NCBI GenBank assembly: GCA_000165345.1 | Contig: CM000430.1 | Location: 640,001-704,000, forward strand | Direction: 5' to 3' | DNA length: 64,000 bases | Part shown: in pieces, positions 7,674-45,259 of the stretch | Layout: each line of letters opens with the position of its first letter | Position numbering within the stretch: position 1 is the first letter of the stretch | Notes under the pieces: generated by a model | Seen by the model: only the letters and a program-made list of their open reading frames with translations | Database searches by the model: none | What the model was told of the DNA's origin: nothing | Program-made: the position numbers and the translations under genes

Positions 7674-8933
7674 TTATGCATTAGTATATAATATCATCAT
7701 ATTTAGGAAGATGATTAATAAGCTTTGTAAAATATGATAATTTGAGAATATTGGTAAAGAATTACTTTTTCTAAAATGTTTCTTGTAAAATCTTCTAAGT
7801 CCATGTTTAAGATCAAATGGTCCTCTATCAATAATTTCATAATCAATAATATCCAATCCATTTTCATTTTTGCATTCTTCTGGATTTAATAAACATTTAC
7901 AATCATTCGAATTAGGATTATATGTACAATGACAGCCAGGATTGAATGGATTAATATAACATCCACACAATTTTGAATATGGATTTAAATTACATGGGCA
8001 TCCAATACTATAAGGACTTGTTGAGCATCTTGGTATTATTGGAAGAGTAATATCATTAGTACAAGAAATAATAGTTTTACATTCATTAGTCATAGGATAT
8101 GTAATATTATATTGATTATTTTGTATATGATTATATATTGATTGATCATTATAACAGAAGCAATCAATTCCCATTGGATTAGTATAACATTTATATTCAT
8201 TATTATGTATACAATAAATTGGATTATTAATACACATGAATTTTATATTATTAGTAGTTTTTAAACTTGCTTGACAGAATGGATTATGTTCATTATTAAT
8301 GTTATCAATATTTCTTTTCCATAGAATAATTTTACCATATTTATTATTAAATTCATTTTCTATTAATGTAATTCTTTCAATATCATTATAAGTTGGATAA
8401 TCAATTAATATATTTTTGATTATTGATAAATCAAATATTATACCTTTTAATTTACCATTTGGTAAATTACATTTTTCATATCCACTAAATAATTTATTTG
8501 AATTTTCTGCATATATCTCATCAATTACAATATCTTGTATATGTATTCCTAATATATTGGAAATATGTTCTTTTAATGCCATTGTAATTTGTTTATAGTT
8601 ATCTTTTCTTTCTTCACAAAATGAAGATTCTAATAATGCTAATGTAATTGTTTGAATATGATTATGCTTTCCAATATCACTATCAGTATTTTCTTCTTTT
8701 TCCCGTCCTTTAGTAGTTGGTAATTTTGTATTATTATTGTTAATAGGAATTGAAGTGGAAGTTTTAGAAGTGAAGGATTTTCTAGTAGAGGTGGTGGTAG
8801 TAGAAGTTGTTGTTGTTGTTATAAGAATGGGTAATTTGAGTAATAATTTATCTTCTTTACTTGCAAAAAGTTGAGAATCATTACCATTACTCATTCCATC
8901 AAATTCTATATCATTATTTGGTATAGAGTTCAT
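7674..8933 (-). CDS. Thr-rich mucin-like protein with a C-terminal cysteine-repeat domain (5 x C-x-C-x2-N-P/D units). It may be the 3' part of a larger mucin gene that includes the upstream poly-Thr tract.
   Basis: ATG at 8933..8931 verified. No signal peptide follows this Met. There is a TTTTTSTTTTST tract. The repeats are CFCYNDQ, CPCNLNP, CGCYINP, CHCTYNP and CKCLLNP. A Thr-coding frame from the repeat region ends with TAA at 8982..8980, one frame off from this ORF. Confidence 0.6.
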   Translation of the reverse strand: MNSIPNNDIEFDGMSNGNDSQLFASKEDKLLLKLPILITTTTTSTTTTSTRKSFTSKTSTSIPINNNNTKLPTTKGREKEENTDSDIGKHNHIQTITLALLESSFCEERKDNYKQITMALKEHISNILGIHIQDIVIDEIYAENSNKLFSGYEKCNLPNGKLKGIIFDLSIIKNILIDYPTYNDIERITLIENEFNNKYGKIILWKRNIDNINNEHNPFCQASLKTTNNIKFMCINNPIYCIHNNEYKCYTNPMGIDCFCYNDQSIYNHIQNNQYNITYPMTNECKTIISCTNDITLPIIPRCSTSPYSIGCPCNLNPYSKLCGCYINPFNPGCHCTYNPNSNDCKCLLNPEECKNENGLDIIDYEIIDRGPFDLKHGLRRFYKKHFRKSNSLPIFSNYHILQSLLIIFLNMMILYTNA

Positions 8934-8939
8934 TTTGAG

Positions 8940-9700
<761 letters not shown>

Positions 9701-9709
9701 AGTTTGGTT

Positions 9710-12043
<2,334 letters not shown>

Positions 12044-38134: not shown

Positions 38135-39841
38135 ATGGAGCAAGTTCAAGTAACGCCTTATCTTGACCAGAAGCCAGGAACAAGTGGTCTAAGAAAGAAA
38201 ACCCGTGTATTTATGGAAGGAACTTACTTGGCTAACTTTATTGAATCATACTTCCAATCATTCCCACCTGAAAATTTTGAAGGTGCAACACTTTTGGTAG
38301 CTGGCGATGGTAGATTCTTTCTACCAGAAGCAATACAAATTATTTCCGAAATTGCTGCAGCACATAAAGTTAAAAGGATTTGGACTGGTGTTAATGGCTT
38401 ATGTTCAACACCAGCAGGGAGTGCTATCATAAGAGAAAGAGAAGGCGGTATTGCAGTCGGTGGAATCTTATTAACAGCTTCACACAACCCAGGTGGTATT
38501 GATGAGGACTTTGGAGTTAAATTTAACGGAAAGAATGGTGGCCCAGCTCAAGATTCGGTTACCAATACAATTTTTGAAATTACAAAAAAATTAACATCAT
38601 ATAAGAAGATTTCACTTCCTAAAATTGATTTAAGTAAAATTGGCGTGCAGGAATTAATACCCAATCAATTTACCGTCGAAGTAATAGATACATCTGAAGA
38701 TTGGCTAAAATTAATGAAAAAGATATTTGATTTCCAAAAGATTCAAAATCTACTTAATAGAAAAGATTTTAAAATGGCTTTTGATTCTATGCATGGTGTG
38801 GCTGGACCATATGCAAGAAAACTCTTTGTTGACGAATTTGGATTGCCAGAAAGTTCATTGTTACATTTGGAATCAAAGCCAGATTTTGGAGGGCTTCATC
38901 CTGATCCAAATCTTACTTATGCAAAAGACTTAGTTGAATTAATGAAAGTTAAATCTCCAGAAAAAGTTGATAAAAGCACGCCAGATTTTGGTGCTGCTGG
39001 AGATGGTGACTGTGATAGAAATATGATTTTGGGTAAAGGATTCTTTGTTACCCCTTCAGATTCTGTTGCAATTATTGCATCATATGCGAAAGAAGCAATC
39101 CCATACTTCTCAAAAGGATTGGCTGGTGTCTCAAGATCTATGCCTACTAGTACTTCGCTCAATAATGTAGCAGAAAAGCTCGGAATCCCATGCTATGAGG
39201 TACCAACAGGATGGAAATACTTTGGTAATTTAATGGATGCAAAAATGATTGACATATGTGGTGAAGAATCTTTTGGAACAGGAAGTGACCATATTCGTGA
39301 AAAGGATGGATTATGGGCAGTGTTGGCTTGGTTATCGATTCTAGCCCACAAGAATCCAGACCCAACAAAGCCATTGGTATCTGTTGAGGATATCACTAGG
39401 GAATTCTGGAAAACATATGGAAGAAACTACTACACTAGATTCGATTACGAATCAATTGAAACAGAAAAAGCTGATCAATTCTTTAAACATTTAAATTCTT
39501 TAATGGAAGATCATCAGAAATTAAGAGAAATCATTAAACCATATGGTATTGATATCAAATTAACTGATAACTTTACATATAATGATCCAGTAGATAAATC
39601 TGTCGCAAAAAATCAGGGTTTAAGATTTATCTTTCAGGATAACTCCAGAGTTGTTTTCCGCCTATCAGGTACAGGTTCAGTAGGAGCAACAATTCGAATT
39701 TACATTGAAAAGACTGTGAGTGATCAAACAAAAGTTAATAGCACATCAAACGAAATCCTTGGCGATTTGATTGAGATAGTTGAGAAAAAGATTAAATTAA
39801 AAGAATCGACAGGAAGAGATAGGCCAACTGTTATAACTTAA
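38135..39841 (+). CDS. PGM: Phosphoglucomutase (alpha-D-phosphohexomutase family), copy 1, cytosolic type (568 aa).
   Basis: ATG verified. It carries the active-site Ser loop TASHNPGG, the Mg loop GDGDCDRNMILG, and the sugar- and phosphate-binding motifs (GEESFG, RLSGTGS). Confidence 0.95.
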   Translation: MEQVQVTPYLDQKPGTSGLRKKTRVFMEGTYLANFIESYFQSFPPENFEGATLLVAGDGRFFLPEAIQIISEIAAAHKVKRIWTGVNGLCSTPAGSAIIREREGGIAVGGILLTASHNPGGIDEDFGVKFNGKNGGPAQDSVTNTIFEITKKLTSYKKISLPKIDLSKIGVQELIPNQFTVEVIDTSEDWLKLMKKIFDFQKIQNLLNRKDFKMAFDSMHGVAGPYARKLFVDEFGLPESSLLHLESKPDFGGLHPDPNLTYAKDLVELMKVKSPEKVDKSTPDFGAAGDGDCDRNMILGKGFFVTPSDSVAIIASYAKEAIPYFSKGLAGVSRSMPTSTSLNNVAEKLGIPCYEVPTGWKYFGNLMDAKMIDICGEESFGTGSDHIREKDGLWAVLAWLSILAHKNPDPTKPLVSVEDITREFWKTYGRNYYTRFDYESIETEKADQFFKHLNSLMEDHQKLREIIKPYGIDIKLTDNFTYNDPVDKSVAKNQGLRFIFQDNSRVVFRLSGTGSVGATIRIYIEKTVSDQTKVNSTSNEILGDLIEIVEKKIKLKESTGRDRPTVIT

Positions 39842-40051
39842 TTTTATGGTAATAAACAGGAAACTTAAAAAAGTATAATTCTAAAGATTTTAATGAATTT
39901 TTAATTTCTTAATGTAATTGTTTACAAAATGATTTAATCTGAACTCGAAAAAAAAAAAAAAAAGACCTCATCTTTCGAGGGTTTGGAAGAGCTAATAACA
40001 TTACCGCAAATTAAGAATTAAAACAACACTTTTACTACTTTTTTTACAAAG

Positions 40052-42064
40052 ATGATGAAAATTTTGAACATACTCTTTTCATTAGTTCTTGTAAGTCAGT
40101 ATGTCAATGCAAACGAAAGTGTGGGGAATTTGAGATATTTGCAGAAAATAAATCTGATCGAACCTACCGATGGTCAAGCAAAGGTAGTTACCTCCCAGGA
40201 TGTTCAAATTAATCAGGGAAGGGCCCTAATTAAGAAGAAAGTGTCCGTAGTAACAAGAAATGTCATTGAAACCGAAACAACTGAGACTTATTATTATTCA
40301 GATAAAGGTCTAGATGCTTGGAGTCCTAATGAAAATGATAATCTATTAGATATGTTAGTTCAAGAAGTTCAAATATCTCCTTATCTTGATCAAAAGCCAG
40401 GAACAAGTGGTCTAAGAAAGAAAACCCGTGTATTTATGGAAGGAACTTACTTGGCTAACTTTATTGAATCATACTTCCAATCATTCCCACCTGAAAATTT
40501 TGAAGGTGCAACACTTTTGGTAGCTGGCGATGGTAGATTCTTTCTACCAGAAGCAATACAAATTATTTCCGAAATTGCTGCAGCACATAAAGTTAAAAGG
40601 ATTTGGACTGGTGTTAACGGTTTATGTTCAACACCAGCAGGGAGTGCTATCATAAGAGAAAGAGAAGGCGGTATTGCAGTCGGTGGAATCTTATTAACAG
40701 CTTCACACAACCCAGGTGGTATTGATGAGGACTTTGGAGTTAAATTTAACGAAAAGAATGGAGGCCCAGCTCAAGATTCGGTCACCAACGCAATTTTTGA
40801 AATTACAAAAAAATTAACATCATATAAGAAGATTTCACTTCCCAAAATTGATTTAAGTAAAATTGGCGTACAGGAATTAATACCCAATCAATTTACCGTC
40901 GAAGTAATAGATACATCTGAAGATTGGCTAAAATTAATGAAAAAGATATTTGATTTCCAAAAGATTCAAAATCTACTTAATAGAAAAGATTTTAAAATGG
41001 TCTTTGATTCTATGCATGGTGTGGCTGGACCATATGCAAGAAAACTCTTTATTGACGAATTTGGATTGCCAGAAAGTTCATTGTTACATTTGGAATCAAA
41101 GCCAGATTTTGGAGGGCTTCATCCTGATCCAAATCTTACTTATGCAAAAGACTTAGTTGAATTAATGAAAGTTAAATCGCCAGAAAAAGTTGATAAAAAC
41201 ACACCAGATTTTGGTGCTGCTGGAGATGGTGACTGTGATAGAAATATGATTTTGGGTAAAGGATTCTTTGTTACCCCTTCAGATTCTGTTGCAATTATTG
41301 CATCATATGCAAAAGAAGCAATCCCATACTTCTCAAAAGGATTGGCTGGTGTCTCAAGATCTATGCCTACTAGTACGTCGCTCAATAATGTAGCAGAAAA
41401 GCTCGGAATCCCATGCTACGAGGTACCAACAGGATGGAAATACTTTGGTAATTTAATGGATGCAAAAATGATTGACATATGTGGTGAAGAATCTTTTGGA
41501 ACAGGAAGTGACCATATTCGTGAAAAGGACGGATTATGGGCAGTGTTGGCTTGGTTATCGATTCTAGCCTACAAGAATCCAGACCCAACAAAATCATTAG
41601 TATCTGTTGAGGATATCACTAGGGAATTCTGGAAAACATATGGAAGAAACTACTACACTAGATTCGATTACGAATCAGTCGAAACAGAAAAAGCTGATCA
41701 ATTCTTTAAACATTTAAATTCTTTAATGGAAGATTCTCAGAAATTAAGAAACTCTCTCCGTTCAAGTGGGTTGAAGGTGAAATTTATGGATAACTTTACA
41801 TATAATGATCCAGTAGATGGTTCAGTTACAAAAAATCAGGGTGTTAGGATTATATTTACGGACGGTTCAAGAATTATTTTTAGAATTTCTGGAACAGGAT
41901 CAGTGGGAGCAACTATTAGGGTATATATGGAGAAGACTGTTAAAAACCCTCAGGAATTTGAAAAAACAACCCAACAAGCTCTAAATCACTTAATTGAGAT
42001 AGTTGAGAAAAAGATCAAATTAAAAGAGATTACTGGTAGAAGCAAGCCTACAGTAATTACTTAA
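40052..42064 (+). CDS. Phosphoglucomutase / parafusin-like paralogue, copy 2, with an N-terminal signal peptide plus a roughly 100-aa extension (670 aa).
   Basis: The N-terminus MMKILNILFSLVLVSQYVNA|NES is a strong signal peptide. The core from about 40352 is near-identical to copy 1 for about 1.37 kb and then diverges in the C-terminal roughly 110 aa. Confidence 0.9.
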   Translation: MMKILNILFSLVLVSQYVNANESVGNLRYLQKINLIEPTDGQAKVVTSQDVQINQGRALIKKKVSVVTRNVIETETTETYYYSDKGLDAWSPNENDNLLDMLVQEVQISPYLDQKPGTSGLRKKTRVFMEGTYLANFIESYFQSFPPENFEGATLLVAGDGRFFLPEAIQIISEIAAAHKVKRIWTGVNGLCSTPAGSAIIREREGGIAVGGILLTASHNPGGIDEDFGVKFNEKNGGPAQDSVTNAIFEITKKLTSYKKISLPKIDLSKIGVQELIPNQFTVEVIDTSEDWLKLMKKIFDFQKIQNLLNRKDFKMVFDSMHGVAGPYARKLFIDEFGLPESSLLHLESKPDFGGLHPDPNLTYAKDLVELMKVKSPEKVDKNTPDFGAAGDGDCDRNMILGKGFFVTPSDSVAIIASYAKEAIPYFSKGLAGVSRSMPTSTSLNNVAEKLGIPCYEVPTGWKYFGNLMDAKMIDICGEESFGTGSDHIREKDGLWAVLAWLSILAYKNPDPTKSLVSVEDITREFWKTYGRNYYTRFDYESVETEKADQFFKHLNSLMEDSQKLRNSLRSSGLKVKFMDNFTYNDPVDGSVTKNQGVRIIFTDGSRIIFRISGTGSVGATIRVYMEKTVKNPQEFEKTTQQALNHLIEIVEKKIKLKEITGRSKPTVIT

Positions 42065-43558: not shown

Positions 43559-45259
43559 ATGAATAATATGAAGTTTTTATTTTATTTTGGATTTTTGGTT
43601 TATGTTATTGGATCATCTGTGAATGCTAATGATTTAGCTCTTCCTCTTAAGAAGAATAAGGAATGCGAACATTGCATTATAAAGGGCGATCAAAGTGTTA
43701 AAACTCAGGTTAAAGGAGCCTATTTAGTGGTTGAGAAGGAAACCACTCTTTCTAAAACTCCAGATACACAAATTAAGCCATTTGATGAAGTTCCAAAACC
43801 ACCAAAGGTTGGAACTGATGATGCCGAAGATGATAAAACCAATGTTAAGGAATTAAGTCCCACTGTTGGTGAAGTTCCAAATGTTGTTCCAGAGCCTAGA
43901 TATATTCCAACTGTAAAGATATATGATTCTCAAATTGAGGATTTATCATTTCCAGAAGATGTTGATTCAGAAACACAATCAGAAGAGTCTGAAGATGATA
44001 ATGAAGATGAGCTTATTTTGACACGTTTGCAACTTGGAGGCCAAGTTGAAGTGGTTTCAAAGAGAGACAGTGAAGGTAAGATTGAGATTCAGAATATTGG
44101 TAACCTTGATTTATCTTGTACTCGAATTGAAGAGGAAACTAAGCCAAAGAGTAAATCAAAACTTAGAGGTAATAAATCTTCAAATTCAATGGTTTCTGGT
44201 TCAGATTGCCCTCAAAGTACCCGTTTCCTGACATATGATCTCTTAATGTTACAGAATGTAGGAGAGGAGCCTACTGATGGTGATAGTGTTACTTCACAGC
44301 CATCTTTAGAGCATACAGAGTCTGAGCAGAATAGCGGTAACGGTCGTGTTATTAGAAAGTTAGCTAGTGGTTTGGAATGCGATAAATGTGAATTATGCAC
44401 AGAAGATAAGAAATGCTTCTACCATAATGGTAAGAATACTGATAAATCTTCTGAGGCTTTAGAGTCAGACCTACCTTCATCTACTACTACTACTACTACT
44501 ACTACTTCTTCTTCTACTACCACTACCACTACCACTACCACTACCACTACTACTACTACTACCACCACCGCAATCCCACCTTCAATGTCAGATGAGGAGA
44601 AGTCACCATTTGTAAGTGATGATATCTCCAACGATGAAGTCCCAGCTCAAGATGACTCAAATAAGACTCCATCTACTGAAACAAATAAAGATATAGATAT
44701 GAATGTTTTATTAGACAATATGAATGCTTTAGTTAAGATCGTTAAGGAAGGGAAAGAAGAAAGTGCTAAGGCTCAGTTAGAACTTCGTAAAGATAGGGAA
44801 CTATTGACCAAGGTTATTTTAGATCTTAGAGATTCCAAGGATTTGACACAATTATATATACAGCTTGCCAAACTTGAGATGGAAATTAACTTGGTTAAAC
44901 AAAATATTGGACAATTGAAGAGAGATTTAGAAAAGGCCAAATCTTCTAGTAACTTTTTGACTCAATATGAGAATAAGAATAATACAGAATTAGAATTAAT
45001 GAAAGAGAAAGCTATGAGTAGTAAATTATATTCTCCTAAACTTGCAAGAGCAATTTCCAGACTTGAAAAGAAAAAGATCAGTACTCATGCTATTCAAAAG
45101 GATGTCAGTAAGAGAATTGAAAGCTTATCACAAGCTATTTCTACTGAAGAATCTCGTATTTCTGAATTATTAGAGCAAAAGAAGAAAACTGAAAATATAA
45201 TAAATAAGATTTCAAGTGAGGAGAGGTTATCATTCGATGAAGTTGATAATAAGCATTAA
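43559..45259 (+). CDS. Secreted acidic Thr-rich (mucin-like) protein with a C-terminal coiled-coil (566 aa).
   Basis: ATG verified (an upstream ATG terminates after 4 codons). The signal peptide is MNNMKFLFYFGFLVYVIGSSVNA. There is an acidic region, a (T)8SSS(T)18 tract, and heptad-like coiled-coil in the last about 200 aa. Confidence 0.7.
   Translation: MNNMKFLFYFGFLVYVIGSSVNANDLALPLKKNKECEHCIIKGDQSVKTQVKGAYLVVEKETTLSKTPDTQIKPFDEVPKPPKVGTDDAEDDKTNVKELSPTVGEVPNVVPEPRYIPTVKIYDSQIEDLSFPEDVDSETQSEESEDDNEDELILTRLQLGGQVEVVSKRDSEGKIEIQNIGNLDLSCTRIEEETKPKSKSKLRGNKSSNSMVSGSDCPQSTRFLTYDLLMLQNVGEEPTDGDSVTSQPSLEHTESEQNSGNGRVIRKLASGLECDKCELCTEDKKCFYHNGKNTDKSSEALESDLPSSTTTTTTTTSSSTTTTTTTTTTTTTTTTTTAIPPSMSDEEKSPFVSDDISNDEVPAQDDSNKTPSTETNKDIDMNVLLDNMNALVKIVKEGKEESAKAQLELRKDRELLTKVILDLRDSKDLTQLYIQLAKLEMEINLVKQNIGQLKRDLEKAKSSSNFLTQYENKNNTELELMKEKAMSSKLYSPKLARAISRLEKKKISTHAIQKDVSKRIESLSQAISTEESRISELLEQKKKTENIINKISSEERLSFDEVDNKH

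Follow-up and report, generated by a model that had tools for sequence, protein, structure and literature searches.

Probable recurrent gene conversion of the catalytic core in the tandem phosphoglucomutase genes PGM1A and PGM1B of intestinal Cryptosporidium

Results

Tandem phosphoglucomutase genes of Cryptosporidium parvum

The 64,000-nucleotide (nt) window analyzed here (positions 640,001 to 704,000 of contig CM000430.1, assembly GCA_000165345.1; all coordinates below are those of the window, unless a locus is named) contains two phosphoglucomutase (PGM) genes that the first-pass annotation, made from the sequence alone, described as a head-to-tail pair. The listing of open reading frames (ORFs) bears out this arrangement. 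CpPGM1A, a cytosolic phosphoglucomutase 1 of 568 amino acids (aa), is encoded at 38135-39841 (+), and CpPGM1B, a phosphoglucomutase 1 of 670 aa that begins with a signal peptide and a linker, at 40052-42064 (+). The homologous cores of the two genes are 2223 nt apart, and the genes themselves are separated by a 210-nt spacer (39842-40051, +), which must be the site of the promoter and the 5' untranslated region of PGM1B. The pair has been described previously, including the tandem layout, the spacer length, the signal peptide of PGM1B, and the linker of about 80 aa (Nie et al. 2021, Pathogens 11:21, PMC8781159).

In the protein search, PGM1B matched P0001 of C. parvum Iowa II with identity and coverage both at 100%, and PGM1A agrees with P0010 of Iowa II at all variable sites of the tract described below (codons 1-460 compared); both records are named 'phosphoglucomutase, tandemly duplicated gene [Cryptosporidium parvum Iowa II]'. 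The window therefore represents C. parvum chromosome 2, and the two genes are cgd2_3260 (PGM1A) and cgd2_3270 (PGM1B). The identical PGM1B protein was found on four contigs.

Both proteins match the Pfam domains PGM_PMM_I, II, and III and the PGM1 C-terminal domain (PGM1_C) far above the cut-offs, and the closest solved structures for both are human and rabbit PGM1 (E-value about 1e-177). The motifs TASHNPGG, DGDCDR, GEESFG, and SGTGSxGATIR, which we take to be the phosphoserine, metal, sugar, and phosphate loops, respectively, are legible in both translations. All active-site residues are reported to be conserved in CpPGM1A and CpPGM1B (PMC8781159).

An abrupt boundary in the identity between the two copies

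In a global nucleotide alignment of PGM1A and PGM1B, scored in 50-nt windows, 46-50 of 50 positions match from about 38194/40417 to 39493/41716, and the count falls to 27-40 of 50 over the remainder up to the stop codons; both flanks of the homology show background identity, about 16-27 of 50. Thus, divergence along the pair is not uniform, and identity drops abruptly. At base resolution, the highly similar tract is 1341 nt long and 98.0% identical between the copies. As delimited from the alignment, trees, synonymous divergence (dS), and a breakpoint test, it spans 38171-39511 (+) in A (codons 13-459, corresponding by Pfam mapping to domains I-III and the first ~30 residues of domain IV) and 40394-41734 (+) in B. 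The tract contains 25 listed base differences, 17 synonymous and 8 non-synonymous by NG86, the latter in line with the approximately eight amino acid differences counted in the first-pass annotation. The near-identity of the antisense ORFs embedded in the two copies, which that annotation also pointed out, is a trivial consequence of the nucleotide near-identity.

Divergence rises on either side of the tract. Among the first 36 nt of shared sequence, 5' of the tract, there are 10 differences. The final 327 nt before the stop codon are 67.0% identical, within the 60-70% initially estimated for the last ~110 codons; this unconverted 3' segment comprises the A-type domain IV at 39512-39838 (+), orthologous to its A counterparts in other intestinal species, and the B-type domain IV at 41735-42061 (+), orthologous to the other B copies. 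The A-B dS in C. parvum is 0.061 in the tract vs 1.30 in the 3' segment, a change of about 20-fold at the boundary. The maximum chi-square value is 325, at alignment column 1395 (the highest value in 1000 permutations was 20); with third codon positions only, the maximum is 173, a value reached by 0 of 1000 permutations.

Base-by-base comparison placed the 3' boundary at a CA/TC mismatch at core position 1377-1378, followed by divergent sequence. This sequence includes a hyper-divergent block (EIIKPYGIDIKLT at 39527-39565 (+) in A; NSLRSSGLKVKFM at 41750-41788 in B) and then, still within the divergent part, a 30-nt island encoding DNFTYNDPVD that is the same in both copies (39566-39595 (+) in A; 41789-41818 in B). 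The longest A-B identical runs 3' of the boundary are 30 nt and 23 nt. The phosphate-binding loop SGTGSVGATIR is present in domain IV of both copies.

The tract groups by species and the 3' segment by copy

The comparison included orthologous loci from C. meleagridis (two assemblies), C. tyzzeri, C. hominis, C. ubiquitum, C. canis, C. ryanae, the assembly GCA_014529505.1, C. muris, and one Logan contig. Both A and B are present in C. meleagridis UKMEL1 (L001), C. canis (L007), C. muris, and the chromosome-level C. hominis assembly GCA_045269125.1 (L012); two short-read metagenome contigs of C. hominis carry A and B separately. A single gene is found in the second C. meleagridis assembly (L003), C. 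tyzzeri (L002), C. ubiquitum (L006), C. ryanae (L008), GCA_014529505.1 (L009), and the Logan contig (L011).

In the intestinal species with two copies, A and B are 94-100% identical up to alignment column ~1375 and 48-85% identical afterwards. The conversion boundary seen in C. parvum recurs in its relatives: in C. hominis, C. meleagridis, and C. canis, the step in identity is found at the same column of the alignment. The two C. muris copies are ~70% identical along their full length, with no step. Within species, A and B are 94.3-98.7% identical in the tract, compared with 76-96% between species.

Neighbor-joining trees on simple distances (200 bootstraps) for the two parts of the gene conflict. 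In the tract tree, A and B of each of C. parvum, C. hominis, C. meleagridis, and C. canis are sisters with 100% bootstrap; in the tree of the 3' 327 nt, the A copies form one clade and the B copies another, with 97-100% support. The same conflict, with the tract grouping by species and the 3' part by copy, was obtained in protein trees with gregarine and Chromera outgroups and when the C. hominis pair from the single assembly L012 was placed in the trees. Consistently with orthology of the 3' segments, that of C. parvum A is 98.5%, 94.5%, and 73.4% identical to the A copies of C. hominis, C. meleagridis, and C. canis, respectively, and that of C. parvum B is 97.6%, 92.7%, and 72.5% identical to the corresponding B copies. 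Together with the ~20-fold change in dS, the opposing trees support the view, put forward at first reading, that the sharp boundary is a signature of gene conversion.

Within species, the tract paralogues differ by a dS of 0.046-0.061 vs 0.145-0.162 for the C. parvum-C. hominis orthologues, and therefore the last homogenization took place after that speciation. The tract dS from C. parvum is 0.39-0.44 for C. meleagridis and saturated for C. canis, and the dN/dS (non-synonymous to synonymous divergence) of the core is 0.04-0.12. The gastric species have the same layout, A followed by a signal-peptide-bearing B. In the N-terminal part, the A copies and the B copies of C. muris, C. andersoni, and C. 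serpentis are each monophyletic with 100% support; therefore, there was no concerted evolution in the gastric clade.

These comparisons strongly support independent overwriting of the tract in each of the four intestinal lineages, with 5' and 3' limits that barely shift. Judging by the sequences, the duplication itself predates the split of C. canis.

Two further observations concern the tract. Between-species dS is about twice as high in the tract as in the 3' part, the sample for the latter being small: for C. parvum-C. hominis, 0.145-0.162 vs 0.043-0.089, and for C. parvum-C. meleagridis, 0.39-0.44 vs 0.22-0.23. In C. canis (L007), the tract contains two ~40-nt islands of low A/B identity, at core alignment columns 424-469 and 812-842. 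In C. parvum and C. meleagridis, too, the sparse A/B differences are concentrated in these two regions (around residues 143-153 and 271-281). The C. canis islands may be fast-evolving loops or segments that escape conversion.

Single-gene loci and loss of PGM1B

The C. ubiquitum locus encodes one A-type gene, followed downstream by a decayed relic of PGM1B (L006:6708-8891) that retains, in order, ATGATGAAGATCCTGAAT (MMKILN), stop codons, the linker motif LVKKKSTCETEILETQYYSN, and the first ~40 core codons (TAYFANFIEF), the remainder being deleted. With this decayed PGM1B 5' end in place, assembly collapse was rejected as the source of the single gene, and the loss of PGM1B in this species is real. 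C. ryanae, C. bovis (P0133), C. xiaoi (P0131), and GCA_014529505.1 have a single PGM gene with an A-type domain IV; in C. ryanae and GCA_014529505.1, tblastn against the spacer that follows the gene, at E-values up to 10, yielded no remnant of PGM1B.

The remaining single genes are hybrids with an A-type 5' end and a B-type 3' end: L002:5001-6707 (C. tyzzeri), L003:5001-6707 (the second C. meleagridis assembly), and L011:5001-6701 (the Logan contig). In C. meleagridis, the switch from A to B falls within the tract, and in C. tyzzeri, it falls in the 30-nt identical island. Such hybrid genes could be unequal-crossover deletions or assembly collapses. Nie et al. reported both genes in all available genomes (PMC8781159); in contrast, C. 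ubiquitum has only a relic of PGM1B, and several assemblies contain one gene.

Variation among isolates

In C. parvum-type assemblies, the polymorphic residues of the tract (215, 232, and 281 in A; 132 and 145 in B) are all at sites that distinguish A from B in the window. Of the A-type states, A215 and V232 recur in the B copies of C. hominis-type contigs (P0125, P0126), and A215 occurs in C. tyzzeri. Two C. hominis A alleles differ at 41 tract positions vs 0 of 327 in the 3' part, and the A tract of one C. hominis isolate is closest to the B of the other isolate (8 differences). This pattern, derived in part from possibly chimeric short-read metagenome contigs, is suggestive of ongoing exchange between A and B.

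The N-terminal extension of PGM1B

The first-pass annotation noted a 5' extension of about 100 codons that begins with a signal peptide. The extension comprises 102 codons and opens with MMKILNILFSLVLVSQYVNA (40052-40111, +), a signal-peptide-like segment consisting, by inspection, of the n-region MMK, the 11-residue hydrophobic core ILNILFSLVLV, and SQYVNA, with V at -3 and A at -1, followed by N after the predicted cleavage point. The maximum Kyte-Doolittle value over 11 residues is 2.83 for the N-terminus of PGM1B vs 0.31 for that of PGM1A. By inspection and hydropathy, PGM1B has the features of a Sec-type signal: a basic n-region, a core of at least 10 residues, and small residues at -3 and -1. 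The signal peptide, uncommon for a glycolytic enzyme, had already been predicted by Nie et al. (PMC8781159).

The rest of the extension is an 82-aa B-specific linker (40112-40357, +) without homology upstream of PGM1A, where identity is at background level in the alignment. The linker retains the motif IKKK.SV...ET.TTETYYYS and is otherwise fast-evolving (dN/dS 0.3-1.1 vs 0.04-0.12 in the core). At the local base composition, the chance of an open frame as long as the extension is about 1e-4 per genome. Hydrophobic N-termini are present at the same position in the C. hominis, C. meleagridis, C. canis, and C. muris loci and in the C. andersoni and C. serpentis proteins, which refutes an assembly chimera as the origin of the extension.

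A C. hominis-type metagenome contig has an in-frame TAG in place of CAG at linker codon 49 (L005:733-735; window 40196-40198), which, as read from the contig, separates the signal peptide from the enzyme. The proteins P0004, P0125, and P0126 begin just past this position, and C. hominis P0121 (OLQ17010.1/PPA62640.1) is annotated with a 108-nt GTAAGT...TAG 'intron' that skips the TAG; therefore, the same TAG allele is implied in other C. hominis isolates. The possibility that this stretch, with GTAAGT at 40091 and AG at 40197-40198, is a genuine in-frame intron of 108 nt was rejected because C. canis lacks the GTAAGT and the frame is open in four genomes; the annotated intron is most likely an annotation device that bypasses the C. 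hominis TAG. The chromosome-level assembly GCA_045269125.1 (L012) has CAG at linker codon 49. Its PGM1B (L012:4001-6012) differs from L005 by a 1-nt deletion within ...PDPTKPLVS... that shifts the frame and is spanned by an intron-like gap in the annotation (P0122, 657 aa); this deletion is probably a sequencing or assembly error.

Function of the two copies and the relationship to parafusin

The distinct roles suggested for the two copies at first reading are supported by data that were already published. The recombinant enzymes CpPGM1A and CpPGM1B have a Km of 0.17 vs 0.13 mM and a Vmax of 7.30 vs 2.76 umol/min/mg, CpPGM1B being active in both long and short forms; expression of PGM1B is 3-7-fold below that of PGM1A by quantitative reverse transcription PCR (qRT-PCR); and immunofluorescence places PGM1A in the cytosol and PGM1B beneath the sporozoite pellicle and at the parasitophorous vacuole membrane, with a native PGM1B band of about 80 kDa (PMC8781159). 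Going by this literature, PGM1A would be an abundant cytosolic housekeeping enzyme, and PGM1B a scarcer active enzyme that would travel via the secretory pathway to the pellicle and the parasitophorous vacuole membrane. A 2026 phosphoproteome paper lists PGM isoforms among the enzymes with elevated phosphorylation propensity. No spatial-proteomics or other localization data for cgd2_3270 were found in the main text or available supplements of other papers.

The proposal that the second copy is parafusin-like, in the manner of Paramecium parafusin and Toxoplasma gondii PRP1, did not hold, and this identity was rejected. Both copies belong equally to the PGM1 clade, so that membership does not distinguish copy 2, and the match of PGM1B to human PGM1 (594 bits) is better than its match to 1KFI, the parafusin of Paramecium (565 bits). 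PGM1A and PGM1B are equally co-orthologous to PRP1. Nie et al., who had already compared the pair with parafusin/PRP1, describe ciliate parafusin as lacking PGM activity and found PGM1B to be active (PMC8781159). A Ca2+-dependent cycle of phosphorylation linked to exocytosis is also characteristic of the parafusin/PRP1 type. Parafusin/PRP1 has been described as a scaffold on vesicles from which it returns to the cytoplasm in a cycle, with soluble and membrane-associated forms; T. gondii PRP1 staining is seen at the inner membrane complex and rhoptries. PGM1B, however, starts with a genus-conserved signal-peptide-like sequence, which does not fit a cytosolic protein coating vesicles: a PGM1B with a signal peptide would be luminal or secreted, unlike parafusin/PRP1. 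What the proteins have in common is PGM1-clade homology and membrane- or pellicle-associated staining of PRP1 and CpPGM1B, and the particular resemblance of CpPGM1B to parafusin is limited to the membrane-proximal staining.

Other features of the window

All related loci share the next gene downstream (43559-45259, +) at this position. Its 566-aa product has a signal-peptide-like start, MNNMKFLFYFGFLVYVIGSSVNA, with cleavage before ND, a long poly-Thr stretch, a weak match to the Pfam Mucin family, and a C-terminal part that looks like a coiled coil. Its predicted cleavage motif is similar to that of PGM1B (YVNA/NE, with the slash at the cleavage point). Elsewhere in the window, positions 8001-10000 show a G-over-C skew of 0.54 across 2 kb, far exceeding that of the remainder.

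Discussion

Origin of the homogenized tract

We propose, with a probability of about 0.88, that an old tandem duplication was followed, in the intestinal lineage, by recurrent non-allelic gene conversion of ~1.34 kb with a 3' boundary set by heterology. Non-crossover homologous repair between misaligned tandem copies would overwrite this stretch, which encodes catalytic domains I-III and the start of domain IV. On the 5' side, the tract ends ~20-36 nt into the shared sequence, probably for want of homology further upstream, the signal peptide and linker of B having no counterpart upstream of A. On the 3' side, it ends at the hyper-divergent block (39527-39565), where the remaining domain IV starts; this block is the probable heterology barrier that stops the tract. 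Dense mismatches and the lack of a long identical run beyond them would block heteroduplex extension, an effect that would reinforce itself over time. We infer that the 3' boundary is fixed by sequence heterology, possibly strengthened by selection on domain IV. The tract ends ~30 residues into the Pfam C-terminal domain, and therefore the unconverted part is essentially domain IV. Under such a regime, PGM1A and PGM1B would share one evolving catalytic core, and the domain IV of A, the domain IV of B, and the targeting extension of B would evolve independently as true orthologues.

Several points weigh against this interpretation or limit it. The orthology of gastric and intestinal A and B copies, as judged by domain IV alone, has a bootstrap of 57-64% in the 3' tree, and a single duplication behind the gastric and intestinal B copies rests on the common gene order and the common signal peptide. 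The trees are distance-based rather than maximum likelihood, an effect of which is unlikely given the size of the signal. For C. hominis, A and B were initially taken from two metagenome contigs built from short reads, which are possible A/B chimeras within the tract; the chromosome-level assembly L012 gives the same grouping in the trees, and therefore this caveat is lifted for the main result, although not for the fine mosaic. The overlap between polymorphic sites and sites that distinguish the paralogues would also be expected from private point mutations accumulated since the last homogenization. The tract shows no excess of G+C at third codon positions (GC3), with 0.24 in the tract vs 0.23-0.27 in the 3' part in C. 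parvum, and GC-biased gene conversion was rejected on this ground. Finally, a mechanical and a selected boundary are both possible.

The hybrid genes bring up a different route to homogenization, namely, unequal crossing-over with cycling of the copy number, in which the pair contracts to one hybrid and is then re-duplicated. An A-type 5' end joined to a B-type 3' end, as in C. tyzzeri, the second C. meleagridis assembly, and the Logan contig, is the expected product of an unequal crossover, and each hybrid locus lacks one entire 2.2-kb repeat unit. However, a hybrid gene has neither the A-type domain IV nor the signal peptide and linker of B, and re-duplication cannot bring them back, whereas both are kept as orthologues in C. 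parvum, C. hominis, C. meleagridis, and C. canis. Moreover, the hybrids are equally explicable as the collapse of a 1.3-kb near-identical repeat, given that two copies are present in C. meleagridis UKMEL1 and one in the second assembly of this species. We consider cycling of this kind improbable. Less probable still is one recent partial duplication or replacement confined to C. parvum, with a 3' end that is merely older and nothing recurrent: such an event would yield the same identity step inside a single genome, but the tract was homogenized separately in four species, and several independent events would be needed.

Exchange could be dispensed with altogether if purifying selection kept the first 450 codons alike and left domain IV free to diverge. 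The core is indeed strongly constrained, with its dN/dS of 0.04-0.12. Yet synonymous sites show the step as well (dS of 0.061 vs 1.30; third-position chi-square of 173), and the tract diverges freely between species, with a dS of 0.39-0.44 to C. meleagridis and saturation to C. canis; selection is therefore excluded as the cause, and we give this explanation hardly any weight. An assembly artifact, with one gene split into two or the extension wrongly joined, is similarly hard to credit. Several assemblies of related species do mishandle the repeat or really lack it, but the copies in the window can be told apart by 25-27 tract sites and by their flanking sequences; the two-copy layout and the extension are found in independent assemblies of C. 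sp. 43IA8, C. hominis, C. meleagridis, C. canis, and C. muris; and both CpPGM1A and CpPGM1B were cloned and expressed by Nie et al. (PMC8781159).

A more speculative interpretation, which we regard as unlikely, concerns the boundary and PGM1B itself: the boundary would be selected, domain IV being specialized for the compartment (cytosol for A, the secretory lumen or the vacuole interface for B), and secreted PGM1B would be an accessory enzyme gained and lost by lineage. The part on gain and loss derives from the C. ubiquitum relic, the nonsense allele in the linker of some C. hominis, and the single A-type gene of C. ryanae, C. bovis, and C. xiaoi. If this were true, the pair would be a natural domain-swap system built on a common catalytic core; secreted PGM1B would have its accessory role where host and parasite meet, and the presence of PGM1B could follow host or niche.

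Comparison with known systems and previous work

Partial gene conversion of tandem duplicates is known from the human fetal globin genes HBG1 and HBG2, in which the 5' part is homogenized up to a fixed boundary. PGM1A and PGM1B resemble this pair in the tandem arrangement, the partial tract, the abrupt boundary, the older divergence in the flanks, and the recurrence in separate lineages. Unlike in HBG1/HBG2, the boundary lies within an exon at a domain border, and one copy has a compartment-targeting extension; no simple-sequence hotspot was seen at the PGM1A/B conversion boundary. The redirection of one copy of a duplicated enzyme by an N-terminal presequence has a parallel in plants, where plastidial and cytosolic PGM are compartment-specific isoforms distinguished by an N-terminal targeting extension. 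In contrast to the transit peptide of plastidial PGM, CpPGM1B carries a predicted signal peptide of the endoplasmic reticulum type.

In the previous analysis, the identity of CpPGM1A and CpPGM1B was treated as one overall figure (90.8% for amino acids, 91.7% for nucleotides), and the A/B mismatches were observed to cluster toward the C-terminus and exploited for antibody design (PMC8781159); here, this identity is split at the boundary. Gene conversion, concerted evolution, or recombination at this pair is not mentioned in that paper, and no earlier account of conversion at the locus was found in a literature search, the coverage of which left out many subscription papers. The gene-conversion tract is apparently an unreported feature of a known gene pair, produced by a conventional process.

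Implications

Whole-gene trees and overall identity are misleading for PGM1A and PGM1B: the duplication is far older than the 91% identity implies, and the information specific to each paralogue is contained only in the last ~110 codons and the N-terminal extension. The tract matters for the design of isoform-specific antibodies, primers, and CRISPR guides, and, as a polymorphism hotspot, it is relevant to read mapping and variant calling. The occurrence of one hybrid gene in several public assemblies is relevant to assembly quality control. For the biology of the parasites, C. ubiquitum shows that at least one species can do without PGM1B, which constrains ideas on the role of this enzyme. 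The pair is a clean multi-species case of domain-limited concerted evolution, by a mechanism that is itself conventional.

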